Source: Cetorhinus maximus (lineage: Eukaryota). From it: a stretch of DNA of 64,000 bases. A model generated the notes under the pieces. It had not been told where the DNA came from. It searched no databases and saw only the letters and a program-made list of their open reading frames with translations. Position 1 is the stretch's first letter. The number at the start of each line of letters is the position of its first letter. Location: positions 134,044,001 to 134,108,000 of the forward strand of contig NC_135885.1 in the NCBI RefSeq assembly GCF_964194155.1, in the 5' to 3' direction. Both the position numbers and the translations under genes were made by a program. Positions 1 to 54,101 of the stretch are shown here, in pieces.

Positions 1-2067
1 CTTGATTGCCCTGACTTTCTCCTCTACTGGATGCAACCCTTGGGCATCCACTTGATGGCACAAATAAGTGACTTCAGCCGTTTGGAAAGTAGATTTCTCT
101 TTTTTCAATCGTAAACCAGCCTCCAAAAATCTCCTTAAAACCTCTTCTAGGTTGGCCAAATGTTCGGCTTCCGTTGATCCTGTGATCAGGACATCATCCA
201 GGTACACTACTACTTGGGGAAGTCCTTATAGTAGGCTTTCCATGGTTCTTTGAAATATCGCACAGGCAGAAGACACACTGAAGGGTAGGCGTGTATATTG
301 GTACAGGCCCTTGTGCATGCTGATGGTTATATACCCTCTATTTGTGCTGTCCAGCTGTAGCTGTTGGTATGCATGGCACATGTCTTGTTTAGTGTACGAT
401 CTTCCTCTTGCAAGTTTAATGTATAGGTCTTCAATTCTTGGGATTGGATATTTGTCTAATTTAGCAGCCTTGTTCACAGTTAATTTGTAGCCTCCACAGA
501 TGCAAATGGTTTAATCTGGTTTCATTGCAGGGACTATGGATGCTGCCCATTCTGAAAACTGGACTGGCTGGATTATTCCTAACTCCTCTAAATGGTACAA
601 TTCTGTATCCATATTCCCCTTTAGGCTGTAAGGCACAGGTCTGGCCTTAAAGAACCAGGGTGTTGCCTCCGAATCTACATATATCTTAACTTGTATCCTT
701 TATCTTTCTCAACTTATCTTGGAATATGCTGTCATACTTTTTAACAGCGCAGGAATTCCTCCTGTTCTAACTTGAAAAATTTCTGACCAGCTGAGCTTAA
801 TTTTTTTTAACCAGTCGCAACCCAGATGGCTAGGTCCTTCACTTGTTACAACAATCACTGGCAGCTGGGCTGTCTGTTGCCTGTAGGATACAGGTACAGA
901 GGCGGTGCCTTTAGCCTGTAATGCCTCTCCAGTGTACATCTTCAGCTGAGCCATGGTTTGCTCCAGATTCAGTGGCTGGGTACTTTTAATGAGGTATTTA
1001 GAGGAATGTTCTCCCACCGCTGTGGTCGATGCTCCTGTGTCAACCTCCATGGCTGGAGCCTTCCCATTTACTTGAAGGGTAATGGTGATTGGTTCAGTTT
1101 TCCTTGCCTTAAGATTGTATAGGGAATAGATATCTGTATCAGCAGCTTCTGGTTTGTTTATATTGTGCGCTTCAATCACCTTGGTCTGCTGTCTAATTGG
1201 CTGTCTCGATTTCACCCTGTATTGCTTTATTACACGCCCTTTTTGTGACAGTAGTGGCAATCTGCCTCTTTAAATCTGCAGGTTTCCAATACATGGTTGC
1301 CCCCACATTGGTAACAACTTAATTTCTGAATCGCTGGTGAGCCGCTTCCAGTGTTTCTTTTTGTTTTTTGAGCGGCAGGGCCTGTGTCCGGCTTTGCGGT
1401 TATCTCCCTGGTTTTCATGCCATGCCCGGTGGGAGGTTCCTGTCCCAACTGAAGAACGGCACCATGCTGCACGCTCTGCAAAGCCTGCGAGTCTCTCTCA
1501 GTACTCTCTATTGCTAGCGCTATCTCCATGACGAGCTTCAGGTCCATATTAACTGCTGAAAGTAAACGGCGCTGAATGGCGTCATCATGTACGCTACAAA
1601 CCAAACGATCTTGCAACATGTCATTTAGAGTATCTCCGACTTCACAGTGCACCATTACTTCGCGATGTACGTTGCGATTGACTCACCGGGGGCCTTTACT
1701 CTAGAGTTGGGCTTGAATCTTTGCATGATCACCGATGGTTTAGGCCGAAAATGTGCCTTCACAAGGTCTACTAGCTCGTTAAAGGATCTGGAGTTTGGCG
1801 CGTCCGGGGCTGCCAGACTACAGACTAGGTTATACGTCTTGCTCCCATGGACACTTAGAAGAATTGCTTTTTGTTTCTCCTTTGCCGCTATTTCGTTCGC
1901 CACAAAGTAGAAACCTAGGCGCTCTATATACTTACCCCAGTCTTCAATGGTTGAGTCGTATGGGCCAATTCTTCAAAAGAGTGGCATGACTGGTAAGTAT
2001 ATTCTTTCTTCCCTTAAAAATTGAAATACTCACATTCGCGAGGTGAGGTCCAGCGTCGGAGCCATTT

Positions 2068-4749: not shown

Positions 4750-5429
4750 GGGCTGAATTTTACTGACTCTTGGGAGATGGACAGGGAGGCACGGTAGCCA
4801 GTAAAATTGCAGGGAGTCAGGTCAGATTAGCTGCCAGGCACTGTCCCACCATCAGGCAATTTTGCCAGTGGTGAGATCAGATGGGGAGAGGCTGCCCGCC
4901 CCAAGGGCTATTTTACGTTTTTGACAGAATCTTTCCAATGGTGGGGTGACTTCCTGCTGCCTGAGGAGGCTGCCAGCTAATTGGAGTGGCCTCCTAGCGG
5001 CAGCCCAGGGTCGAAGGCCTCATGGGCTAAAGTAGGGGCCATGGGGAGGGAATGTGGCTCCCACAGCCCCAACGACCTTCCCGGAAGTGTTTCCCCTCCG
5101 ATCCTCCGCCCTGTGATTTGTTTTTTAGTTTTTTTTAAATTTAACTCACTTGTCCTTGATCTGCTAGGTCTGCTACATTCCTCACCGGTGACCAGCCCTC
5201 CCGGTGGCACTGGAGCTTCAGGGCTTCAGGGCTGCCAACCTTGAGATTGGGCCAGCAATATCAGGAGCTTGCCCACTGCCCTTAGTTTGACAATGTGCCT
5301 ACAGACAGCTGATTAAGAGGCCGCCTGTGGTAAAATTGCCAAGCAGGTCCCAACGACAACAAGTGCAGGCTTGAGGCCTACTTTGTGCCTCAAAATCGGG
5401 GACCCCAATCAGATGACAAAACTCAGCCC
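4750..5429. mobile_element. Harbinger-type MITE
   Basis: TIRs GGGCTGAATTTT...AAAACTCAGCCC, 3-bp flanks TAT/TGT; inserted in a CR1 TTCTATGA tail. Confidence 0.75.
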
Positions 5430-8446: not shown

Positions 8447-8703
8447 GGGGAGAGTTTTCCCCATGTTGGGCAGGCTGTGGGGGAGCGGCCGCGGGTGGTC
8501 GCGGACCCGATTGCTGCCGGCGATTGGGACTGCGCCACCATTTTACGCGGGTGGGCCAATTAAGGCCCGCCCAGCGTGTTTGCCGGCTCCCGGGGACAGC
8601 GGGACTGGGCAGGCGGTGACGGATCAGCAATTGCCACCGGGTTCAATGGCGACCCGGTGGCCTGTTTAAAGGCCAAGCTGCAGCCGCTCCAAGGCTGCTG
8701 GAC

Positions 8704-10873
8704 ATGGCCAGAGGTCGGGGCCAAGGCATACCCAGGCTGGTCAAGCAGGAGGGTAGGGCGGGTGGTCACTGTTCATCCAGGTTTTCTGACGAGTGCCTTG
8801 CTGCCCTCCTTGAGAAGGTGGCAGCACGGCGGGAGGTGCTCGTCCCCGAGGATGGAAGGAGGAGGCCCCCCTACTTGACTAAGTGTGCGTGGGAGGAGGT
8901 AGCGGAGGTTGTGAGCTCCCACGACGTGGTGTGGCGCTCATGAGCCCAGTGCCACAAGCGCTTCAATGACCTGCTGCGTACGGGAAGGGTGAGTAGCATG
9001 TTGGCATCCTTCACTTCACCCATCATGTAACCTTCTCCCCCGCTGGCGCCCCACCCATGTCTGAGTGGCCTGAGTGCAATAAGTCATTGACGGCATGTGT
9101 CCTTAGCTGGGCGGCCCAACAGATACTCCCTGTGCGTTGGTCAGCCTGAGAGGGTGGTGATGAGATGAATTCTGCACCCGCAGCATGTGGTGGACTGAGA
9201 CCCACATGACTGTGGTGGGGGTAACCTGGAGAATCTGCACCCAGGCGCAGTGCTCGAACTCCAGGACATGTTGAAGTCAGGGTGATGACATGGCGGGAGG
9301 GGGTCGTCAAGGTGACGTGGAACAGATTGATCTGCTGCCCTCTGCGATCCACGTCATTGTGCTTCCTTGCTAAGGCAGGTTAAACTGTGTGCTCCCAAGT
9401 GACGAAGGCAGCATGTGGCCAAGGTTGGGGGGGATGTGGGAAGGACACACCTGGCATATTTGTGTGAGTGTTCGGCAGCAGCGGGGTAAGGATGCATTGG
9501 ACCCCTGCAATGGCCAACTGGGCTTGGGGTAGGCCGGCCGAGAGGAGATTCACGGTACAAGTATCACTTGTCAATGCTCTTTTCTCATTTCCAGAATTCT
9601 CACAGCACCGCCGAGCGGGTGAGGACTGGTGGTGGGCCAGCCCAGGTTGTGCTGCTCAGCCGCCTCAAGCAGGAGGCCCTTGACCTGGAGAGGCGCCATG
9701 CGCCCAGGTCCACCGGAGCCGGAGAGGCTGGGGTTCCACGGGCAGGTATGTGTGGCCAGCACTCATGTCACCAGTAATCTCCCAACATCCATGGCAGTGC
9801 TGATTGTTCAGTGAGTGACGTTACCAACATGGCTTGCCCATTGTGTGTGGAATGATGAGCGCTTGACGATCCGGGGGACAGGCATGTACATTGACATTGC
9901 CCGCAGGCTAACTGATCGAATTTCCTTACTCTTCCTTTCAGCATCAGAGGTGCAGGGTCGGGACCCAGAGAAGCAGGGCCCCCTCTGACACCTGAGGGCC
10001 ATGAACTGCCAACATCACCAACGTCATACCATCTCTGCCAGGCAGGCACCAGCGCAGATACTGGCACCTTGGTTGGCATCAGATATTCGGCTAGTGCCCA
10101 GGGGCACAGCAGTGAGGGCACTTCACAGTCACTAGAGGAGCTGGCGGAGACAGAGAGTGCCCATGGTGCCAGCAGTCGGAGGACTGCAGGGGACCAAGCA
10201 CATGCTCAGTCTGTGGCTGATGATGAGCCTCCGGAGTTGTCCACAATGCAGCCAACTCATGAGATGCAGCCGGGTGTGCGGGACCATCTGGTGGAGATAT
10301 TTGAGGCTGTGCTTGGCTTGGTGTCAGTAGTGGAGGAGTCTACGTGGACCGTAGCCAATGCATGAGCCTTATGCATGAGCGCCAAGCTTCCCCCATGGAG
10401 AGAGTGGCGACTCTCATGGAGAGGCAGTTCCAGGGACAGGATCAGGGGTTCCTGGGGTTGTGCTTGGACCTGCAATCCCTCACAGGGACATTGATCCCAG
10501 GTGGTCAGTGCCTCGGTGCCCATCCATCTACTGTGAGCAGGGAGGGCCAAATGGACCTCACGTCGGCGGACATCTGTTTATCATCTCTGCTGGTGCCTCT
10601 CAGGGTGCTCTGGATGAGGCCGACAGCTCCTCTGCCCCTCTGCCAGTGACCGCGGCACCCAATGAGGCTGCGGCGGCTGGGGAGATGCCAGCTGCAGAGC
10701 TGACAGCTCCCTCCCAGGCCAGGCAAGCACAGGCTCCATGGGCCAGAGGACGTCCGCCAAGGTTATCGAGGCCAACAGGACAGCAGAGGGAGCAGGCTGT
10801 CGCAGATGCCAGTGCCAGCGAGGGGGCACCACAAAGACGTAGCACCCACAAATGTAAAATTAAGGCACCTTAG
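8704..10873 (+). pseudogene. Harbinger Myb/SANT-like DNA-binding protein, 3 exons (8704-8988, 9595-9745, 9942-~10873), disrupted
   Basis: RFSDECLAALLEKV...AWEEVAEVV...*AQCHKRFNDL trihelix motif, RTGGGP motif in exon 2, canonical GT-AG sites (GTGAGT, TTCCAG, GTATGT, TTTCAG); stop at 8941 and frameshifts. Confidence 0.85.
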
Positions 10874-11199
10874 GCACACCCCAGGTTCATCACTGGTGGT
10901 TTTTTGTTGGCCCCTCGATGAGTTCCTTCTGATTGTGTTTGCAGTGCGACACCATTTTATTTGTGTTATGTTAAGAGACTTTTGTGAAAGCATTAAATCA
11001 AGATCGTCTAACATGGCTGGGGGTGCCTCTTTTCTTGGGCAGGTGGATGGATTCCTGAGATGTTATGAGTGATTTGTGTGTCATTGACATTTATTGACTG
11101 GGCCCATCATCAATGCTCCTATCCTGACAGATTTGGCACTAATGTCTCCAGTATGGAGTCTGCAGCCCAGGCTTGTGTTGGAAGTCCATATGTGCTGTG

Positions 11200-12290
11200 C
11201 TAGCTGAAGGTTCCTTGGATTAGAGCATCCCGGGTGTCCCTGCCTCCCTGGAGTATGCCCGGGTCAGTGTCTACCCCCTCAGCATTTCCCTGTACGTGCT
11301 CATCCTCGGACTCGCTGCTGGATTCATCGTGTGCAGCCGCAGCCACTGTGTCTACATCTTCCTCGTCCACAGCGTCCCCCCTTTCCAGCGCAAGATTGTG
11401 AAGAGCGCAACATACAGCCATTATCACCGACACACGATCTAGGGAGTACTGGAGTGCGCCCCTGGAACGGTCCAGGCATCGGAAGCACATCTTGAGAAGA
11501 CCAATGGCTCTCTCCACCACAGCCCTTGTGATGCCCTGGCTCCTATTGTACCGCTGCTCAGCTTCTGTTCTTGGACGGCAGAGAGGCGTCATGAGCCACC
11601 TTCTGAGGGGATAGCCATTGTCACCCAGCAGCCATCCATCCAGCCGGGCTGGAGCACTGAAGAGCCCCGGCACCTGGGAGTGTCTGAGGATGTAGGTGTC
11701 GTGGGAACTGCCTGGGTGCCTTGCACAGACTTGTAGAATCTGCATCCTGTGATCACGCACTATCTGCACGTTCATGGAGTGGAAGCCCTTCCTGTTGACG
11801 AAGGCACCGGGCTCACCTGCTGGCGCCTTGATGGCCACATGTGTACAGTCTATAGCACCCTGGACGCGAGGGAAGCCAGCAATGGTCGCAAAGCCTCTGG
11901 CTTGCTCTTTCTGGCCTTGTCCCAGCAGTAGTGGATGAAGGTCAAGGCACACCTGAACAGAGCGTCTGTGACCTGCTTGACACAAGTTTGGACAGCTGAT
12001 TGGGAGACACCGCAAAGATCACCCACCGAGCCCTGGAAAGAGCCAGAGGCACAGAATTTGAGGGCAACTGTGACCTTTAGAGCGACTGGCATGGGGTGTC
12101 CACCCACACATTTAACTGAGATCTCTGGACCAACCATCTGGCAGATAGTGTTGACTGTCTCCCTTGACAGACGGAGCCTCCTTCGTCACTGCACCTCAGA
12201 CATATTGAGGTAGCTGCTTCGCCACCTGTATACCCGAGCAGCAGGATAGTGGCGTCTTCTGCGGCCCCTTCCAACCTGGACTACCTCTTG
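11200..12290 (-). pseudogene. Harbinger (HARBI1-like) DDE transposase, frameshifted, N-terminus deleted
   Basis: [47 protein letters not shown] motifs; HTH region [18 protein letters not shown] lies in a different frame. Confidence 0.93.
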
Positions 12291-12503
12291 GTGCCGCAAA
12301 ATCCCCGTCAATTCGAGCCTCAAGGACCTTAAGTGGCCCATTAATTAATGACAGGCGCGCAGCGCACATCATTGCATGCCCGCCCACTGAAATATCGCGA
12401 TGGTGCGTGGTGACATCATGATGCACGCCCGACGTTACCGTGCATCATTTTACGCGTCTGCATGCGGGTCCCGCCCCCGCACGCCGACAGAAAAATTCTG
12501 CAC

Positions 12504-12805
12504 TATGGGTTCCCAATGAAGTGTCTCAATCTGGGTGATGCCTTCTCGAATGATCCTTATCCGTTTTGGTCAGCCATTGGCCAAGGACTCCCATGAGTCA
12601 GTAGGGATGTTTGACCTCTTCAAGGATACTTTGAGGACATCCCTAAAGCATTTCTGCTATCCTCCTAGGAGTAGCCTATCGGGACTGAGTTCTGAGTAGA
12701 GGTGTTGCTTCAGGAGTCTCGTGCTGGGCATACGAGTGAGATGTCCTGCCCAGCAGTTTTGACAGATTAATGCCTTAATGTTAGTCATGTTGGCTTGGGA
12801 GAGAA
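12504..12805 (-). mobile_element. RTE-clade LINE ORF C-terminus (right half)
   Basis: Minus strand reads ..AGHLTRMPSTRLLKQHLYSEL...FRDVLKVSLKRSNIPTDSWESLA, typical of the RTE C-terminus. Confidence 0.8.
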
Positions 12806-13547
12806 CTGTTACGAATGCAAGGTTTTATTATTGTTATGTTTTTGGACTGTGTTTTTAATTGAGGGTAAAATGGAGGAATGTAGAGGGTCATGTGACCTGT
12901 TCTGAATTCGCCCTACCAGAAAACCTGATATCGATTCTGCGTTCAGTTGCGCTCTTAATAGTCAGTGTATGATTTCACATCAAACTGTGTAACTCGGGCA
13001 GTGTTGATCGCAAAAACAGCGCTCAATGTCATCAACTAAGCGTTCAATTAATAGCCCGATCTTCATACTCCAGGGGTCTTCAATGAGCTTAAAAGTGTTC
13101 AAAAGCTATCACGGCTTGTTAAATTTGTAGAAGTGATCATTCGTGTTTGAAAGCTCTCATTAGGCATGATAGGCATCAAGTGCAATCATGAGGCATCTAA
13201 GTGATCAGGAGGTTAGCAGTGCAGCTTCCTACACATTAAAATGAAAAAAATAAACAAATCTTACCACTTATTTTCAAACTTTTTCCTAAGAAGTTCCCTC
13301 ATCCATTCTATTTCAGCTGGCATGTTACCCCTTCCTTCTGACCATTCTCTGGTGCCTCTGCTGTGGCGATTACACCAGGGTCACCAACTCTAGGGGGAAA
13401 AACAAGGGACCCTTCGCTGAGGCGGGGGGAGGGTGGCGGGGGTAAAGAAATAGTCAACAATGTAAGTAACAAAGTAATTGTGGCACCATTGAGAAATAAC
13501 AGTGCAGCGGAATTAAATTTACAAGTACGTACTGAAATAAGAAAGCC

Positions 13548-13742
13548 AGCAGCTCACCAAGGGTCCTCAATGGCACCTTCCAAACCTGCAACCTCTATCA
13601 CCTGGAAGGGCCAGGGTAGCAAATGCACAGAAACACCACCGCCTGCAAGTTCCCCTCCAAGTCTCACAGCATGCTGACTTGGAACTATACCGCCGTTCCT
13701 TCACTGTCGCAGGGTCGAAATCCTGAAACTCCCTTCCTAACA
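13548..13742 (+). mobile_element. LINE-B (CR1/L2-group) 3' ORF fragment
   Basis: Matches 51210-51405 and 56660-56860 (CACCTTCCAAACC...CCTTCACTGTCG...CTCCCTTCCTAACAG). Confidence 0.85.
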
Positions 13743-13919
13743 GCCCCTGCCTACTTGGCTGCTGTTCTAGACAACCTGATCGCTGAGATCTGGGAGCTGG
13801 CGGACAATGTGGCCTAGGACAACAAGAAGACCCACATCATCCTCCACCATCTTCAGCTCGCCATCCACAATGTCAAAGAGCTCAACAAACCGCTGGGTGG
13901 AGTCATCATAGTCCAGGGC
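13743..13919 (+). pseudogene. H2A: Histone H2A pseudogene fragment (histone fold to docking domain)
   Basis: [58 protein letters not shown] aligns without gaps to H2A [59 protein letters not shown]. Confidence 0.92.
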
Positions 13920-14311
13920 TGATTTGATTGAAGTATACAAGATCCTGAATGGCCTTGACACAGTGGACGTCGAAAGGATGTTTCCTCTTCTGGGTGAGTC
14001 CAGAACTAGGGGGCACTGTTTTAAACTTAGGGGTCACCCTTTTAGGACAGCGATGAGGAGAAATTTTTTCTTTCAGAGGGTTATGCGACTTTGGAATTCT
14101 CTGCCTCAGATGGTGGCGGAGGTGGGGTCATTTTTAAGGCAGAGGTGGATAGATTCTTGTTAGGCAAAGGAATCAAAGGTTATCGGGGTTAGATGGGAAT
14201 GTGGAAATCGAAACACAAGAAGATCAGCCATGATCTTATTGGATGGTGGAGCAGGCTCGAGGGGCCGAATGGTCTACTCCTGTTCCTATTTCTTATGTTC
14301 ATATGTTCTTA
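13920..14311 (+). mobile_element. CR1 LINE 3' end
   Basis: DLIEVYKILNGLD...TRGHCFKL...RRNFFFQRVMRLWNSLP, 3' UTR and ATGTTCTT-type tail. Confidence 0.92.
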
Positions 14312-15109
14312 TAAGTAGCAGGCAACATTTTCTGGATGGTCTGCCAGACACCGTCCAAGAACTGCTGCTGATTGCGGAGGAGAACGAAAGTGACAAAAGG
14401 TTTTTTTTATATAAAAGAAACTTTTAAAATAATGAGCACCATTTGAATAGCTGTCCAGAATTGACGAAATCTTGCAATTTCCACTTGGTTGGCTTGGCTG
14501 GTTTTGTAGATGAGGGCTGAGCTGGGCAAAATGATTGCACAAAGCACAAATGCAAGGTTTTAATCTCTCGGCACAACTCATTTATGGTTTAAATTCTCTG
14601 ACCTTTTGTGCTGGTTTGGTTCACTACACTGGATTCTGAATAGAAATAAAAAATTCTACCTCTTCTGTGTTTTGGACTTTATTAGTGGTCTGAATAATAA
14701 AAAAAACAAAATCGCTCCTTATTTATTTTTGTTTCCTTCAGGAAAGCAGAATTTGTGGAAGGCCGAGGCACTAAACCCAAAGATGTGGATTCTCAATTGA
14801 AGATATCAAGTTAAATCTCTGTCTTGGCTAGCGTTTGCACTTCAGCTTTCTATTAAGGAGTGATTTATTTTCCTTCTTGCCAGAGTTATCTATGAGAGGC
14901 AGATGGAAAACTGGTGGACAGGCTGATCTTATCCTGCAGCAAGCAAGACTCATGATTGACTGACCAAGATATGCTGTTGGCAGTATCAGTGATGACATCT
15001 GCATAGAAGGAGTGGGTCAGTATGTGGGGGTATGTGAGAGGAAGAAAATAGAAAAATACTGCGCTAACTATGTAGCATATGCCAAATAGATTTTTTTTTT
15101 ATTAATCCA

Positions 15110-15242
15110 CTAATGTTATGTAACTTAGTTTCCTACATTACAACAATGACTCCACTTTAAAAGTACTTCAACGGTTGTAAAGTGCTTTGGGATATCTTGA
15201 GCTCATGAAAAGCATGGTATAAATCCAAATTATTTCTTTCTT
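15110..15242 (+). mobile_element. Deu-type SINE 3' tail
   Basis: TTTCCTACATTACAACA...GTAAAGTGCTTTGGGA...TATAAAT; reverse complement of the tail at 53100-53215. Confidence 0.65.
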
Positions 15243-16151
15243 ACTTGACACAAGTCTAACTTCATTTTCTTTCTAAAAATCTGCTTTATTATATACCATC
15301 AGACAGACTATGCCACATTGTGAACACTGCTAATGAAAGCAGGTATTTTGACACAGAGGTTAACACCGTTTAGGAGTTTTCCCTTAAATTAAACATTGAT
15401 ATTTTAGTATTTATACCATCTGGAATTTTCAACTGTACCTGCGGACATCAGTGAATCCAACGTAGCACTCTCGATCTCTGCACTCAAATTCTCAATGTGC
15501 CTACAGGGCAAAGAAGCTTTAAACTGGGAATGCAAGTGGTTAACCTTCTTTTGTAATGTAATCATTAGATTCTTCTGACATCATTAAAACCCCTTAGATG
15601 GAATTGCCTTGCCAGTCACTTATTTGTCAGTCATTCGAAGCTCCTTGTTGTCTTTTCTTTCTAATATCTGCACATTTCTCTGAACGAACATTTGGCTAAT
15701 TTGTCAAGAGTAAAATATTTCCTTACAGTGTTAGCTAAAAGGTAAACAGCTCAGCCACTCTGCGATTAATTCCCAAATATGTTTCCGTCTTTTCTCCTGT
15801 ACCTCCCATTTTCTTACTCAGGTTTTTGAATCCTTTGATGTCATATTATCGGTGGCAATGTTTCCTCTTGTGGCGCATCGGTAGCATCCCTGCCTCTGAG
15901 CCAGAAGCCCCAGAAGTCCCACTCCAGTACTTGAAAGCCAAGGATGGTGCCTTCATAATGAGGCCAAAGTTGAGTAACAAATTGTACATTCTTCCAACAT
16001 ACGCCAATGGCAGGCAGTAAGAGGGGGAGAGATTCCTGGCCAGACATGCGATGGAAGGAAATTGGAGCCTTTGCCATCATTATCCATCGCTCCAGGCTAC
16101 AGCATGCAAGTAAAAGTGTGTGTTGCCACAGCAGCTTAGGGCTTCTTGGGA

Positions 16152-16330
16152 GGCCGGTTGGCTCAGTTGGCTGGACGGCAGGTGTGGATCAGATTGGCGT
16201 GAACGGCACAGGGCTCGATCCCTGTTCCAGCTGGGGTGGATTCGGGACCTACCTCCTTGCCCCACCCATTGTGGAGGTCATGGCACTGTGGTTTGGACCT
16301 GCCTTTCGGGCAGAGAGCTCAAGAGGATTT
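16152..16330 (+). mobile_element. SINE with tRNA-Ile-like head
   Basis: GGCCGGTTGGCTCAGTTGG...GGCTCGATCCC resembles tRNA-Ile(AAT) A and B boxes, but the anticodon arm is altered. Confidence 0.6.
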
Positions 16331-17174
16331 CTTCTCTCGTCCCCTCATTTAATCTTTATGTTGCTTTAATTCCACTTTATGATTCACATCCTGTTTCTTC
16401 ATGAATGAAAATGAAAGTCCTAATTCTGCACAGTTGGAAGCATTCGATTTTAGCATTGAACCAACATCCTTGTTTCGTTGAACACCAGTAAAAATAGACT
16501 TTGTGCGCTGAGAGCATGTCTTGAATTTAGAGTGTTTTTGAACTTCATCCTGTGGCACTTTGATTATATTCGGATTCTGTTTATTTAGCTGGATGGGTTA
16601 AATTATTCCTATCACTGGCAATAGTTCTAGTCCATGCATAAGCCCAGATCAAAGTTTTAAATAGATTAATGACAGAACTAAAATAAAGTCAGCAGAGGAG
16701 AGGAGAGGAGGGGAAGCAGAGAGGGGGAAGGGTAGCAGAGGATGGAATGAAGGTGGAGAGAAGGGAAAGGAGCAGAGGAGGTTTGAGTAATTTTAAATGT
16801 GTGTTTAAAGTGCAGTAATGCCAATTGGAACATATGATGTAATGGAAACCATGTCTGTGTGATGTAAGTTATTAATTCATGATCCGGGTTTAAATTCAAG
16901 TTAATTCCAGCCGACAATCACAGTTAACTGTCTTTTGCCACACAGGCCAGGATTTTATGGGCAGAAATCCTGGCCTTTCACCTTTTGGATGATCTCTTTC
17001 TCACATTAGTTGACTCTGGGGCTTCCTCCACCCGCCCCCCACCACCACCCCATCTCACTGCGAGTACAGGACATCCCTCCCCCTTGGGATCTCCTCCAGC
17101 GGGACCTCCAGGGCCATGTGTGAGAACCTGTACACTCTCTCTCCTAGCCCCTGAGCCATCCCACAATGTTTACC

Positions 17175-17277
17175 ATGAAGAAGAGTCATACGGACTTGAA
17201 ACGTTAACTTCGTTTTTCTCTCTTCACAGAGGCTGTCAGGCCTGCTGAGTTTTTCCAGCATTTTCTGTTTTTGTTTT
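17175..17277 (+). mobile_element. Penelope-like element terminal fragment with truncated hammerhead motif
   Basis: Near-identical to 24663-24760. Confidence 0.75.
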
Positions 17278-17338
17278 ATATTATACATTATATGTTATTA
17301 ATACGTATGTTTGCTTATCTGCCAACCAGCGCGCTCTC

Positions 17339-17591
17339 TGTGATTGTGGGTTTGTCTCGGGATTCTTTGGTTTCTTACTCTAGACAAGATCTTGCTGGAG
17401 GCAATGGTCTTTTGTTCAAAATACCTTTATTTACATCACTAACTATTTACAAGGTTATAAAACATCAGGACATAGCTACAGCTCCTCTTTAAGGTGCTTC
17501 TCGGTCATCTCTTCGTGAGCGACATCACTATGACATAGCTCCTTACGCACATGCTCAGTGGCTATTATTAGAGTTAACCCTTTACTCTACA
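17339..17591 (-). repeat. Solo LTR (Gypsy family of 25012)
   Basis: TG...CA ends, 5-bp flanks CTCTC/CACTC, homologous to 25012-25275 and 48044-48299. Confidence 0.8.
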
Positions 17592-19249
17592 CACTCCATC
17601 CTTTCAACGGAAATGGGTGCGTGGATGCTCCATGCATTGCTCTGGAAAATGGCTTCTAATCAGCGCTTGAGTGCTCCATGTGCAGGTATCCATTTTAGTG
17701 CCTCCGTGGAAGGTTAAATCATGGTAAACATCAACTTGTCCCAAACTTTTGTGGTAAATCCAAACTTTCAAACAGGCCTGTCTTTTCAGCACGGCACCCA
17801 CTTAGAACCGTTCAACAAAATTAACCCACAGGTTCTAAAAAGAATTCTATTGTTGGCCATTGCAAATGTCTCTTTCTGATCTTTGCCCTTTTTGTTATGT
17901 CGCTACACCTTCTCTCGCCACTGTTCCACACAAGCTCAGGCTAAGAGTTGAAGACCTTCAGATCTTCCGGGCTACATGGCTCTACGTGAGAAACTTATCA
18001 GCCATGATTGAATGGCGGAGCAGACTCGATGGGCTGAATGGCCTAATTTCTGCTCCTATGTCTTTTGGTCTTATGGTAGCAGAAGGCATTCTAGGAGATG
18101 TTTCATCGTTTGGGATGTCTCTGTGCAGTCACAGTATTCGTTTGGCTGTATCATCAGTTCTGCATAGGCCCTTGCAGTGGCCAAAACCAGCCCTGAGATG
18201 ATTGAGACACAGCCAAGTAGGCCGTATCCTTGTTGCTTCCTGCTGGGAGGGATTCCTCTGGATCAGGAAGGTGGGATTAGAAAGGGCACCTGGGTGTCCT
18301 CAGGCTGGCATGGACAAGATGGGCCAAATGGCCTCCTTCTGTGCTGTAACTTTTCTATGGTTCTATGGTTCTAACGTGTGTGTATTCGTCTGTTACCATT
18401 GGGCCCCTACGCAATCCCAACCCACAAATGCCGCAGCTATTTCTCAATGTATGACAATGTGCAGTTTGCCTATATATTAAACCAGCAATATTGCCAGCTT
18501 GGTGTAAAATGGGAAAGGTGGGTATCCACTGCAGTGCAGCCAGAATCACAGTCGTGTCCAAATTTGCAGTTGTGTAATGAAACAAATCAAGGAGCTGGAG
18601 TTGAACTAAAACCTCCGTTGCAGCTAATTTCACCCTAGAATGGTCAGATACAGACATTTTTTAATTTATAAAGCAGCCACCTGTCCATTGCGTTGAGCTA
18701 TGTTATCATTCCATTATCTACCTATGCAGTTGCCAACAGCTGAATAGTCACAGCCTGAGACGCTTCTTGATTTATGCACCTGTATAGATAATGTGACTGC
18801 TCATGGATAAAAATTCATTTTATGCACAGCTTGATAATGAATTCCAAAAAAAAAAACCCACTCACCTTCTGTGTTATCTCCCTGTTGTCCAGTTAGGTTT
18901 GACAATCAGTTACATTGCTATTGCCACTAGAACTTCAGTCAAATATAATGGTGGGTGCATAAAATATCTGTAACTATATTGAATTGTGAAAAACACTTTG
19001 GAGCTCAATTTTAGATTCACCCCTTCCAAACAAGGGTAGGGTCTGGACTGTATAACACTAGGGTGAAATATTGTTGCCACTGCTGATAGACACAATTTAA
19101 GATAATCAATTAAGAGTATCACATTATGTCAAAGCTTTTATATACATCAAAGAGAATTGGACTTTAGTGTCATTTTTTCCTTCTTAACTTATTAATACTG
19201 ATACACTGAACTGACAACGCTAATTATGAACTACAGATTCAAGCCTTGT

Positions 19250-36045: not shown

Positions 36046-37045
36046 ATGAATCTTAAATTGCATTTGTTCCTCCCACTCATCAAAGCCTTTGACCTGGGTG
36101 ATGACGATAATCCCTTCAGCTACTCTGCCAATAAGAGAAGTGCATTTTGGTGGAACTACACCTCTATTTCCCCCTGGAGATGAACTCTTTCTTCTGCAGG
36201 ACAATTTTCCCTTCCACACAGAGTATAACCAGAGGGTTGCCGAAATGACCAGAAGAGCAGCCAGCTCAGCACAAATCAGCAGCACTGGCAGGATTAAAAA
36301 TGGGCTTAGTAACTGGAGCCTCCAAGTGTGTATTTTTTTGAGACATAAATCAATTGTTTCAGCATCAAGAGATCTGTTCACTTCGCAGTGACCTTTCAAA
36401 TAGCAATAGGAAACAGATTTGAATAGCATTAGGAAGTAGATAAGAATAGTTAAACAACATTACATCATGAAGTTGTGAACCATAAACAAATCCTTTGGCA
36501 ATGGCTTAAGGAACACTCAAAACTGCAAGTGTAACAAACTGAGCAGTGCCCCAATAAGAAGAAAAAATCCTATATGCTTTGTAGAAGTTGATGATTTCTT
36601 GGACACATTTGCCTATTTGACTAATTTTGTAGCACTAGATGCACCCAGTAGATGTTGGTAAGAGGCAGCTATTAGAGCCATAAACTGCTACCACTTCTGG
36701 AACTGCTGCATATTAATTCAGCTTTGCCATTTGGACTCTTAATGTGTGTGCTATTTTTGAACACTTCATTACCAAGACAAGAGGCCTTTTTAACTAGAAC
36801 AGAATTTCTAAACCTAGGCCATTGTTGGGGTCCTCATGAGTAGAATTATCAAGCTGCCTCAAGATGAAGTTAAGTTAAACCTAAAAATTTATCAAATTAG
36901 CTTTTTGGCTTTACAGTTGAAATGTAGAAGCAGACTTTACAAGGAGCGTTATGATGACAAGTGCCGCCATGGATGGTTTTCTTTCTGTCAGCGACATCAC
37001 ACTTTAAAAGCGATTCTCCAGCACGGTAAGACTCCTCCAACAAAT

Positions 37046-38492
37046 TGTTAGGAAATAGAGACAGTTTAAGTAAGTTATATTGGTATTTGTAGGCATTAGG
37101 AATGGGTTTTAGCTTTAATGTTTCAGTTTGATTTGTATTTCTGTATCTGTGTGTTAAGAAAGGTCAAATTGAGTTTTAGATTCACTTGAAAAGGTGCTTG
37201 CATTTCCAGTGAGAGTTTTACGGCTGTAAACTAAGTTAAGCAAACAAGAGTATTAAAAAAAACACTGCTGTTGCTTAGCAACAGGGGTCCAGAGAGGCAG
37301 GTCCCTCCCATAGGTACACACACAGAATAAGAGAAACAGCAGTTTGATTTTGGGAGCAGTGAGACCGGTTGCCTCACGATGTGACAAGCATCTGGGGGGA
37401 GCTGAGGAGAGATCCTTAGCACCTGGTTGAGGTGGCATCTGTCACTTGGGGGAGAATTTTCTCCCCTCTGGGGGGGTTGGGCGGGAGCGGGCGTGGGTGG
37501 GTACGTAGCCGACTGCTGCCCATGATCGGCTGTGCACCACCATTTTACGTGTGCGGGCCAATTAAGGCCCTCCCAACGTGATGCGCACCCAGAAGCGCTG
37601 AGCGCTCCCTGTGCGGGCGGGGGGAGTAGGCTGAGTCGGGGCCTGTGCTCTTTTGTGCATGCGTGCGAAAGAGCGCAGGAATCTCCCTGAGGCACAGAGC
37701 GGCCTTGGGGAGATTACTTTGATTTTTAAAAATTTTAATAAAGGGAAAAAAAATTTAAAGACGTGTCCCCTCATGGGACAGTGTCACATGAGCTGGGACA
37801 TGTCTATGTAATTTATTAAAAAATTCTATTAATGTTTTAAAACCTTCATGAAATCTCATCCCGCCTGTGGATGAGGTTTCATGATAAATGTGAAGGCCGT
37901 CTGGGCTCTTCGTCTGCCCCCCGGCCAACCTCAAGGTTGGACGGGCAGCTCTGTTAAGTATTTCAATTAGAATTTAAATGGCCTTAATGGGCCTTTGACA
38001 GTTCGGCGGGCGCACAGCCGACTTTGGTGCACGCCCACCCAAATGAATATCTCAATGACCGGCGATGACGTCGGGATGCACACCCGATGTCACTGCGCGT
38101 TGGCAAATGGGACCCGCCCTTACTCGCTGACCTGAAGATTCTGCCCTTGGTTTCAGAGTGTGGTGTGTCTGACCACAGGGTGCCTGGTACGTGGACTGTG
38201 TACTTACTGTGGACAATAGAGTATAAGGTAGCTTTTGTAACTTGTGTCATCCTTACAAATCTGTATATATCTGTAAAGGTATAGTTGTGGGTGAGGGAGT
38301 ATTGTAATATAGTTCATCTTTTCTTGTTCAATAAATGTTTTATTCTTTTGTTAAAAGTTCATCAGCTGACTCCTGTTCAGTAGCTACTTTCCACGTACCT
38401 AAGCAAACAAATTAAAAGTCAGGATCTATCAAGCTGGGCTCCGCTGTGGGATCAAGCTTGTCCAGTGATAACCTCAGGTGGGGATCATAACA
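37046..38492 (+). repeat. Solo LTR (family C) with a MITE insertion
   Basis: TGTTAGG...CATAACA, AATAAA at ~38329, flanks AAAT/ACAT, homologous to 58874-60072. Confidence 0.85.
37449..38146. mobile_element. Harbinger MITE (~700 bp)
   Basis: TIRs GGGGAGAATTTT...AAGATTCTGCCC, exact TTG duplication, empty site seen in the paralogous LTR at ~59724-59735. Confidence 0.92.
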
Positions 38493-39307
38493 ACATGCAA
38501 TCAATTTATAATGAATGGTTTTATGGGGTGATTTTTCAATGGGCATCCACCTGTTGAAATTGTGGGCATTGGGACCCTTACAGTTTAGCCACCAGCTGAC
38601 TAGCTTGATTATCCCCAGAAGTCTGTCCGGTTCCATTTTGGACTGGCCCTCTTGTTAGGCCTCCAGCAAGCTTGCCTGAAACCAGCAGCTGCCTATTGAA
38701 CATACATAAATTAGTGTCCTGCTGCTGCTGTTCCAGGACAAAAATGCCATTTTTAACTGCTGCAGCATGCTATTTGCCAGTTTTACAGTGGACCCGCACA
38801 GCCCAGTAACTGTGCGAGTGCAGAGTGAGCAGGAGGAGGTACATTCAAGTGAATGGAGGAGAGCGATGGGAAGTGAGGGACAATGGGCTTCTTAGTGCTA
38901 TGCATACAGTAGAATTGTGCAGAGTAATAAAGCTGTGAATGGTAGTTTTACCTAAATAGTTCTTGGCAAGTCATTGAATTTTTTCCTGCACTGTTGCAAA
39001 AAAAATCTTCAGTATGATATGAACCTGTGTGTTCATCAACCTTTTTCCGCTATTGTGGCATTATTTAGCTGTGCGCTGGGGCTCCAACACATCACTGGGG
39101 AACAGGACCTCCTTCTTCCTGGTGACTTCCCTCCACCAGAAGCTCCATGGCAACATTGGAAAAATGGGCGGGTCTCCAGCTGCAGTCATTTTGGAGGCAA
39201 CAATAGATGGAGCATTAGCAGAGCTAACCCCAAAATAATTTTCTCATATAAGAATGGATTTATTTTTCCTCATTAAAAATATTGAAAATTTGATTCATAA
39301 ACCTTTT

Positions 39308-49126: not shown

Positions 49127-50660
49127 GGGCAGAATTTTTCGCTCGGCGGGCAGGTGCGCGCCCGACCTGCTCGAGTGTGAAATAACGTGCGATGACGTCG
49201 GACGACTTCAAGGCGCACTCTGGTGATATTTCGCGAGGCGGGCGCATGGTGGAGATGGAGGCGCGCCCTCCATTAATTAAGAGGCCAGTTGAGGCCCTCG
49301 ACACACCAATTGTCTCCAGGTTTACGTAGCCTGTGCGATTTTTCTCAGCCACTGCACGGGCAAAACGGGCAGGTGGGCAGGACGCAAGTAGCGAAAACTC
49401 ATCTGCAGGCGCGATAAGAAGGGTCAGTGGCATTTTCAATGCGAATAGTGAGGGGTTTTGGATATAACTTGCTGCTGGTTGCTTCTGTGAACTGGACAGC
49501 TTCATCTCGCTTCAGAGCTGCATTCTGAGCATTTCTAGGCTTCATTTCAGGACTCATTGGTGTCTTCCAGGCCCCTGGAGGATTCAGATTGTGTGGGCCC
49601 TTCCAGGTATCAGACAGCCTTCCCTTACTGTGGTAATGGGGATTGTGGTCTCCGCTGGAGGCTCTGAGCAGGTAGAGAGGGGCAGAAGGGAGAGGAGGCC
49701 ACCTGTCCCAATGCAGCTTCCAGGGGAGCGACCTGCGGGAGGAGAGGCGCAGACACAAGGGGTGCAGGGCCAACAGGAAGTCCAAGGCAGAAAGGGCCGC
49801 AGAAGATGCCACTATCCAGCTACCAGGGTTTACATGCGGCGATGCAGCTACCTCAATATGTCCAAGGTGCAATGCCGAAGGAGGCTCCGCCTCTCAAGGG
49901 AGACAGTGACCTCCATCTGTCAGAGGATCGGGCCTGAGATCAGCTCCAACTGTGTGGGTGGACACCCAATGCCAGTGGCGCTGAAGGTCACAGTGGCCCT
50001 CAACTCCTATGCCTCCGGCTCTTTTCAGGGCTCAGTGGGGGATCTTTGTGGAGTCTCACAATCAGCTGTCCACACTTGTGTCAAGCTGGTGACAGATGTT
50101 CTGTTCAGGCATGCATTGACTTTCATTCATTACCACATGGATGAGGCCAGCCAGGCAGAAGTGAGCTGGAGGCTTTGTAGCAATTACTGGGATCCTCCGT
50201 GTGGCCATCAAGGCGCCAGCGGGTGAACCCGGTGCCTTCATCAACAGGAAGGGCTTCCACTCCATGAACGTGCAGATAGTGTGTGATCACAAGATGCAGA
50301 TTCTACAAGTCTGTGCAAGGTACCCAGGCAGCTCCCACGATGCCTACATCCTCAGACACTCCCAGGTGCTGAGGCTCTTCAGTGCTCCAACTTGGCTGGA
50401 TGGCTGCTGGGTGACAAGGGCTATCCCCTCAGAAGGTGACTCATGACGCCTCTCCGCCATCCAAGAACAGAAGCTGAGTAGCGGTATAATAGGAGCCACG
50501 GCACCACAAGGGCTGTGGTGGAGAGAACCATCGGTCTTCTCAAGATGCGCTTCCGATGCCTGGACCATTCAGGGGACGCACAGCAATACCCCCCAGATTT
50601 TGTGTCACTGATAGTGGTTGCATGCTGCACTGTCCAGAATCTGACACTGGCAAGGGAGCA
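49127..50660 (+). mobile_element. Truncated Harbinger (Harbinger-1 family): TIR plus transposase pseudogene 49636-~50650
   Basis: TIR GGGCAGAATTTT; [53 protein letters not shown]; frameshifts. Confidence 0.92.
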
Positions 50661-53396: not shown

Positions 53397-54101
53397 GGGC
53401 AGAATTTTCCCCTTGGCGTGCGGAATTGGCGGGGCGGGTGGGGATGACCAGGAAGCTGACCGCTACCTGTGATTGGCAGCACTCCGCGGTTTTATGCAGG
53501 CAGGCTAATTAAGGCCCGCCCAGCATGATACACGAGCGTCAGGGCTGAGCGCTGCCTGTGCAGGCCGGGAGTTGGGGGGGTAGTGCAAGCAGGCCTGGCG
53601 TGAACTTCACGCATGCGCACGAGAGAGCGCAGAATAATCTCCCTGAAGCACGGAGCTGCCTCAGGGAGACGAAGAGATATTCAAAAAATTAGAGTGGAAA
53701 AATATAATCAAACATGTCCCCTTGTGACTCTGTCACATGAGCAGAAATATGTTTTTAATAAAAAATTAAAAAATTTTTTCATTTGTATTTGACTTTGGAA
53801 ACCTCATCCCGCCCGTGGATGAGGTTTCCAAAAAAATGCAAAGGCCGCTTGGCCTTTTCGTCTGCCCGTCAACCGTTAGGTTGAACGGGCAGTGAAAAAT
53901 TAAGCACAATTGTTAACTTAGTGGCCTTAGTAGGTCTTTTCATTGTCGGCGGGTGCGCTGCTGTCTCCGGCACACGCCCACCGACCAAACTATCGCATGA
54001 CTGCACATTGACGTTAGCATTCTTGGCCGACATCATCGTGCGTCATTTCTCGCTCAGTCAGATCAGGAACACGCCCACCCGCTGAGCTAACCATCCTGCC
54101 C
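53397..54101. mobile_element. Harbinger MITE (~700 bp), same family as 37449
   Basis: TIRs GGGCAGAATTTT...ATCCTGCCC, exact AAT duplication, collinear with 37449-38146. Confidence 0.92.

Follow-up and report, generated by a model that had tools for sequence, protein, structure and literature searches.

Two elements in a 64,000-nucleotide stretch of the Cetorhinus maximus genome (the window) are chains of short inverted repeats whose arms have stayed complementary between the lineages that transposed, with no preference for either strand, and which decay freely after insertion. Because the arms co-varied without strand preference, their symmetry is likely to have been kept as a feature of the DNA that serves jumping, and not as a property of an RNA. 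The constraint appears to have acted on DNA during mobilization, and we think it somewhat more probable than the contrary that, in lineages that went on to transpose, selection for symmetric arms took place at the DNA level.

The family and its transposase-bearing relatives

The elements at 37449-38146 (698 bp, + strand) and 53397-54101 (705 bp, + strand) are collinear and 67.7% identical over 613 aligned columns; they are copies of two subfamilies of one non-autonomous Harbinger family of ~700 bp. The first, of subfamily A, is 88.9% identical to its subfamily majority and is flanked by a TTG duplication (37446-37448/38147-38149); the second, of subfamily B, is 87.5% identical to its majority, has an AAT duplication (53394-53396/54102-54104), and carries 15 mapped family stems. 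The 37-kb copy is nested in another high-copy repeat (36900-38500), and contigs of paralogous copies of that host repeat, which lack the element, join across 37444/38146; these empty sites confirm the element ends. Among the 65 full-length copies listed, terminal inverted repeats of ~12 bp stand at both ends, and 48 have an exact 3-bp target duplication. The usual Harbinger target triplet is TAA/TTA; the triplets of this family vary (ATA, ATG, TAT and CAT are commonest) and are not confined to that sequence. The elements are short, uniform in length, present in high copy and non-coding, as is characteristic of Tourist-like MITEs: the one 160-aa stop-to-stop frame that overlaps the left end continues beyond the element.

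Abundance was estimated from 100 evenly chosen 10-kb stretches of 15 large contigs (1 Mb of a 3.99-Gb genome). The sample holds 31 near-full copies (matches covering at least 450 of the 708 model positions) and 22.5 kb in matches that contain the family's middle; if it is typical, extrapolation gives ~120,000 near-full copies and ~2% of the genome. That share of the sampled DNA may be set against the 0.002-0.14% that Harbingers contribute to teleost genomes and their lack of detection in the elephant shark, both according to PMC9179366.

The family belongs to the Harbingers by virtue of ends held in common with an element encoding a DDE_Tnp_4 transposase. The window contains a long, decayed Harbinger whose terminal repeats are those of the family (8447-12503; transposase remnant at 11203-12018, - strand, E 5.8e-37), in which a candidate Myb/SANT-like frame near 8705 contains stops, and a shortened transposase-bearing Harbinger (49127-50655, + strand). 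Long elements match model positions 1-140 (the left ~140 bp) and about 410-708 (the right ~300 bp). In the 37-kb copy the common left end (37449-37580, + strand) matches 8447-8578 at 75.8%, and the common right end lies at 37852-38146 (+ strand); model positions 412-708, from the CCTCATCC stem onward, match the homologous right end at 49127-49416. Eight of 32 right-end-only matches carry an inward transposase. Further transposase-bearing elements of 4-5.4 kb were seen at loci L062, L116, L134 and L150. What lies between the common ends is specific to the MITE. A first-pass annotation had put this middle at ~370 bp and considered it absent from the autonomous Harbingers; its absence stands, and its size shrinks to ~270 bp (37581-37851, + strand, limits approximate). 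This interior found no match in a profile of six long-element left ends (best E 0.16) and is covered by no transposase-linked match in the 1-Mb sample.

Two side observations belong here. Terminal-repeat pattern matches at window positions 4750, 16945, 24242, 29125, 33881, 38525 and others fall outside the family and may represent other Harbinger families. Open frames at 709-1682 (- strand) resemble what we take to be remnants of LTR-retrotransposon gag and protease.

Nine divergent queries were used to sample the family genome-wide; the best 30 loci for each, out of 11,000-18,000 candidates, yielded 270 copies in subfamilies A (the 37-kb type), B (the 53-kb type) and C to I, whose nine majority sequences were analysed. 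A tenth subfamily, known from one copy, was left out. Copies are 86-93% identical to their own majority (7-14% diverged), and the majorities, 679-710 bp long with 56-85 CpGs, are 59-87% identical to one another. The copies are top-scoring ones and the subfamilies may be mosaic, so the event counts given below are approximate. Three copies have large internal deletions; one copy of ~400 bp (L066:612-1009) lacks model positions 118-422 and retains both ends intact. A search for a second MITE family to serve as control found none with enough copies.

A chain of local stems

A strand-neutral stem finder identified 12-17 local stems, comprising 122-195 Watson-Crick pairs, in each subfamily majority; dinucleotide shuffles (30 per majority) have ~7 stems and 50-58 pairs, with a maximum of 86. 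The longest stems have 22 pairs, and the stems span the ends as well as the middle, so that the ~8 interior hairpins first described become 12-17 per subfamily, distributed over the entire element. Folded as DNA, the 37-kb copy has z = -8.0, and none of 20 shuffles folds equally well.

The chain can be followed along the 37-kb copy. The left terminal inverted repeat continues into a terminal palindrome (37449-37466, 7 of 7 pairs intact) and is followed, within the common left end, by stems at 37500-37538 and 37550-37575 (the latter with an AATTAA loop). The MITE-specific interior has stems at 37643-37678, 37680-37715 and 37759-37805 (inner stem 37770-37792), with A/T-rich spacers between them. 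A 16-pair stem with a conserved 7-nt loop (37846-37884) has outer pairs that occur in three compensated forms across the subfamilies. The common right end contributes stems at 37914-37948 (inner stem 37925-37940, with one bulged A), 37999-38045, 38054-38097 and 38098-38134, and the right terminal repeat. The collinear local inverted repeats that had been remarked upon in the two window copies were located in both: the 16-pair stem and its counterpart at 53794-53832 retain 15 of 16 and 16 of 16 pairs, and the stems at 37925-37940, 37759-37805 and 37682-37713 recur at 53869-53884, 53710-53754 and 53638-53669. In the ends of the long elements, a 12-pair stem (7-nt loop) keeps the register of the MITE, and the position of the MITE's bulged stem is taken by one of 9 pairs in another register; the left ends add stems of their own around what we take to be CCAAT- and TATA-like words.

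The architecture is neither rigid nor free. In some subfamilies particular stems have died or taken new partners (H and I have lost the central one), and lineage-specific stem extensions and new terminal palindromes are present; one-sided bulges keep to the same arm. Spacing is kept: indels per substitution amount to 0.017 in the right half and 0.039 in the left half between subfamilies, as against 0.102 in copies. Invariant over the nine subfamilies are 174 of 330 stem columns (53%), 17 of 40 short-loop columns and 100 of 322 others (28-35% for non-stem columns as a range). The word GCCCG occurs 5-10 times per strand, and a GGCC-AATTAA-GGCC-type site lies near both ends, inverted relative to one another.

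Some further details of the stems may be recorded. The left-end palindrome tracks the terminal-repeat variant in subfamilies A, B, D, E and F, and the right end is without a palindrome. Deletions of at least 5 nt cluster at the central stem (37760-37804) and in the GC-rich end regions; the outer arms of this stem each resemble a p53-type half-site, and its inner arms resemble E-box-like words.

Covariation between subfamilies

Compensated differences were counted between tip pairs of the subfamily tree, and not as independent events per branch. Four edge-disjoint subfamily pairs together yield 12 compensated pairs where 2.59 are expected, and 13 where 1.70 are expected when the stems are taken from the other member of each pair. 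The expectation comes from dealing the same changes randomly over stem sites, and none of 3000 permutations reached either total. The excess is not uniform: H-I, one of the four independent pairs, has none (1 against 1.09). The corresponding figures for A and B are 10 against 3.08, and 6 against 0.55. Most compensations are isolated pairs within stems, some with mismatch intermediates persisting in other subfamilies.

Testing for covariation, which the first-pass annotation called for, finds compensation beyond chance between subfamilies, and it finds an excess by three of five measures when 54 of the 270 real copies are used, in a comparison whose structure was derived from the same sequences. 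Double-changed cells number 347 (198 +/- 10.5 in shuffled and 97-183 in slid controls) and the covariation score is 0.184 (0.135 shuffled); two measures are not above the shuffles, double-change pairs (68 against 65.2) and further pair types (204 against 203.3). The individual contrasts originally drawn between the two window copies fare unevenly. TCATG/TTTGG at a stem base, CCAACC/TCAACC and AGAC/AAAC are true compensated differences between subfamily majorities. GAAG/CTTC against AAAG/CTTT is a register shift that compares different column pairs. For the TGACGTC stem, the loop-closing pair alone is compensated between A and B; most of the other differences are private decay, mainly at CpGs.

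Is structure kept in place of sequence, as had been proposed? Arm complementarity is indeed kept. So, however, is sequence: merely 27 of 243 column pairs (those in stems of at least two subfamilies) show 2-3 Watson-Crick types, about half of the stem columns are invariant, and spacing is fixed. Much can be explained by constraint on sequence alone, since the majority of stem pairs do not differ. A fixed-column structure imposed on all nine subfamilies was abandoned because it mis-scored register shifts.

Neutral decay in resident copies

Inserted copies behave altogether differently. In the 268 of 270 copies retained for the compensation test (after removal of one near-identical copy each from A and D), compensated double changes arising after insertion number 53 at non-CpG sites, where 48.9 are expected (27,391 cells), and 461 at CpG sites, where 465 are expected (9,938 cells). 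The rate of singleton (private) mutation is the same in stems and in unpaired sequence (1350 against 1364; ratio 0.99). An apparently lower post-insertion rate in stems (0.83) vanished when singletons were used, and is put down to hidden sub-lineages. Tracts that extend stems are not enriched in copies (23, against 32-55 in slid controls).

Rare template switches are recorded in inverted loops, which can serve as a natural gauge of such switching in the genome. A position-aware scan, which replaced an earlier position-blind one (21 matches), returned nine matches; one was rejected as poor and two represent a single duplicated locus, leaving seven independent copies in 2196 loops and none in 14,326 control segments. 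(The seven micro-inversions are at L009, L019, L052, L204/L207, L223, L277 and L358.) Seven inversions per 9,308 non-CpG substitutions predict ~0.8 inversions over a subfamily tree of length 1.45, or about 1,000 substitutions. Between subfamilies, 565 comparisons disclosed no clear loop inversion and one ambiguous case; switching has therefore not been visibly accelerated, and at the resident rate it cannot supply the 27 covarying pairs. A few subfamily-specific multi-base overwrites of one arm have the appearance of single template switches; in E and F, the tracts at columns 324-329 are an alignment shift.

How might arm symmetry be maintained?

If arm symmetry is selected in DNA, then copies with paired arms may be mobilized or re-copied more often by a partner transposase and its Myb-like protein. 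On either strand, the stems would be able to fold out as hairpins or cruciforms while DNA is unwound for synapsis of the ends or for gap-repair copying. Sites for sequence-specific proteins are probably added by the conserved loops and by the recurrent word GCCCG, and some of the changes were supplied by rare template switches.

The main rival, unlikely on balance and still to be taken seriously, dispenses with selection on pairing: template switching in the course of error-prone gap-repair synthesis overwrites one arm with the other, and selection acts on motifs and length only, with pairing as a by-product. In yeast, break-repair synthesis raises mutagenesis 1,000-fold and generates quasipalindrome mutations (PMC12891019), and template switching can create as well as maintain stems (PMC8794818). 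The loop inversions of resident copies, and their absence from control segments, establish that switching occurs at the stems of this family; lineage-specific stem extensions and new terminal palindromes are what it might be expected to leave. The post-insertion tests, moreover, are blind to whatever happens only while master lineages are being copied. Against this, every copy has passed through one transposition, yet resident copies have no excess of compensation. The compensations are mostly isolated pairs, separate subfamilies still carry mismatch intermediates, bulges on one side keep to their arm, and conservation is higher in stem columns than elsewhere. Clear loop inversions between subfamilies are lacking as well: a strongly raised rate of switching should have left some, unless loop orientation is itself selected. 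Hairpin-templated correction need not invert loops, however, so that gap repair is compatible with the inversion counts.

It is improbable that the inverted repeats are simply double-stranded palindromic sites for dimeric proteins (the Myb-like partner, host factors), with half-sites changing together as partner specificity changes and without formation of any hairpin. Fixed spacing and conserved loops do suggest that proteins also read sequence. The repetition of GCCCG on both strands and the inverted GGCC-AATTAA-GGCC-type sites fit such a role, as do what we assume to be CRE-, NRF1-, E-box- and CCAAT-like words in the element. In zebrafish, the Myb-like protein of Harbinger3_DR binds a 9-bp subterminal motif (PMC9710019). 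Stems of 10-22 pairs, on the other hand, exceed the 6-8 bases of a Myb-type domain (PMC9921582), and some have been rebuilt where they stood, in new registers. Pairing is the sole property common to the more than ten stems, whose sequences are unrelated, and this favors hairpin or cruciform extrusion over palindromic protein sites alone. A DNA scaffold or a set of palindromic sites is what remains of the readings originally offered for this element.

Those readings had included a structured RNA cargo and a source of small RNA. It is now highly improbable that the element spreads with the help of a structured RNA or small-RNA precursor of its own, even with a compensated chain of bulged stems to recommend it, and with RNA energies that favor the + strand for 6 of 9 majorities. 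Polarity tells against it. After a single transition, a pair reads either G-T or A-C on the + strand. Strand-symmetric mutation makes the two equally likely; an RNA would favor one of them. Because fixed columns mis-score register shifts, polarity was recounted per subfamily with the strand-neutral stem finder: the distinct internal mismatch states are 8 G-T, 10 A-C and 23 others (G-T against A-C, p 0.81). A noisier column-based count gives 21 G-T and 32 A-C. Thus the tolerance of G-U on one strand that would mark an RNA was looked for and not seen, three G-T pairs on the + strand in one stem of subfamily I notwithstanding. A search of Rfam with 37300-38300 returned no family match (14 matches, with E from 1.3 to 9.9, all far below gathering scores). 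Most of the stems lie in ends common to the transposase-bearing elements, where they fall outside the CCAAT- and TATA-like words and the coding regions; judging from the start sites that these words imply, they would be absent from the messages of the long elements. Contigs from four runs guessed to be RNA contain family-like pieces at 80% likeness, and likewise pieces of the flanking repeats; these contigs are without strand, start or level.

Ordinary arm-to-arm gene conversion in resident copies, the neutral alternative named at the outset, is largely refuted and has next to no chance of being what keeps the arms matched: rare loop inversions do exist, but compensated doubles equal chance, singletons are even-handed between stems and unpaired sequence, and stem-extending tracts are not in excess. 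HUH transposition proceeds without target duplication, and a hairpin-ended element of that type (IS200/IS605, REP, Helitron) is ruled out by the 3-bp duplications, the strand symmetry and the DDE partner.

Comparison with known systems, and some implications

In its short terminal inverted repeats, 3-bp duplications, lack of coding capacity, and ends in common with DDE_Tnp_4 elements, the family resembles mPing and the derivatives of zebrafish Harbinger3_DR. The first-pass premise that MITEs need only their termini is contradicted for the Harbinger-type MITE mPing, whose internal sequence affects mobility through general features of its DNA (PMC9921582); the terms "hairpin" and "secondary structure" are absent from that paper. 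Binding of the Harbinger3_DR Myb-like protein to subterminal motifs (PMC9710019) provides a second point of contact. What distinguishes the present family from both is the full-length chain of 12-17 long local stems, compensation between subfamilies, fixed spacing, an interior not found in long elements, and a varied target triplet.

Folding as an agent of amplification has precedents. According to the description in PMC5172404, the model for the Angel MITE has single-strand folding during DNA synthesis drive amplification; Angel is one long palindrome, whereas in the elements described here the stems are short, local and numerous, the duplications are of 3 bp, and the ends have homology to those of a DDE transposon. 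The ends of IS200/IS605 and the REP/BIME elements have subterminal DNA hairpins that are recognized as structure (PMC6006769 and PMC3333891). The comparison is one of working principle only: those systems are bacterial, strand-specific and served by HUH enzymes; this one is strand-symmetric, has target duplications, and has a DDE partner. Template switching at quasi-palindromes (PMC8794818 and PMC12891019, as cited above) explains the loop inversions and one-arm overwrites; at the rate seen in copies it is too low for the covarying column pairs unless accelerated or joined by selection. In the full-text literature searched we found no paper that treats this family or describes a Harbinger MITE with a chain of covarying stems; Repbase and Dfam lay outside that search and may catalogue the family. 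The superfamily is a known one; for the architecture and the evolutionary signature of this member of it we found no earlier description.

Small non-autonomous cut-and-paste elements attain very high copy numbers by means still to be explained, and the part played by their interiors is equally open. On both points the family is a rare natural record, with nine subfamilies whose stems covary and dead copies that serve as neutral control, and it points to DNA-level symmetry under selection during mobilization. It also holds a warning for the discovery of RNAs by covariation, which is strong here without a strand signature. A bolder proposition, that in a vertebrate clade of DDE cut-and-paste elements the ends, and indeed the whole body of the MITE, are read as folded DNA during transposition or copying, is distinctly doubtful. 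If true, it would provide a structure-dependent route to 100,000-fold amplification of a kind known so far mainly from HUH-type elements.
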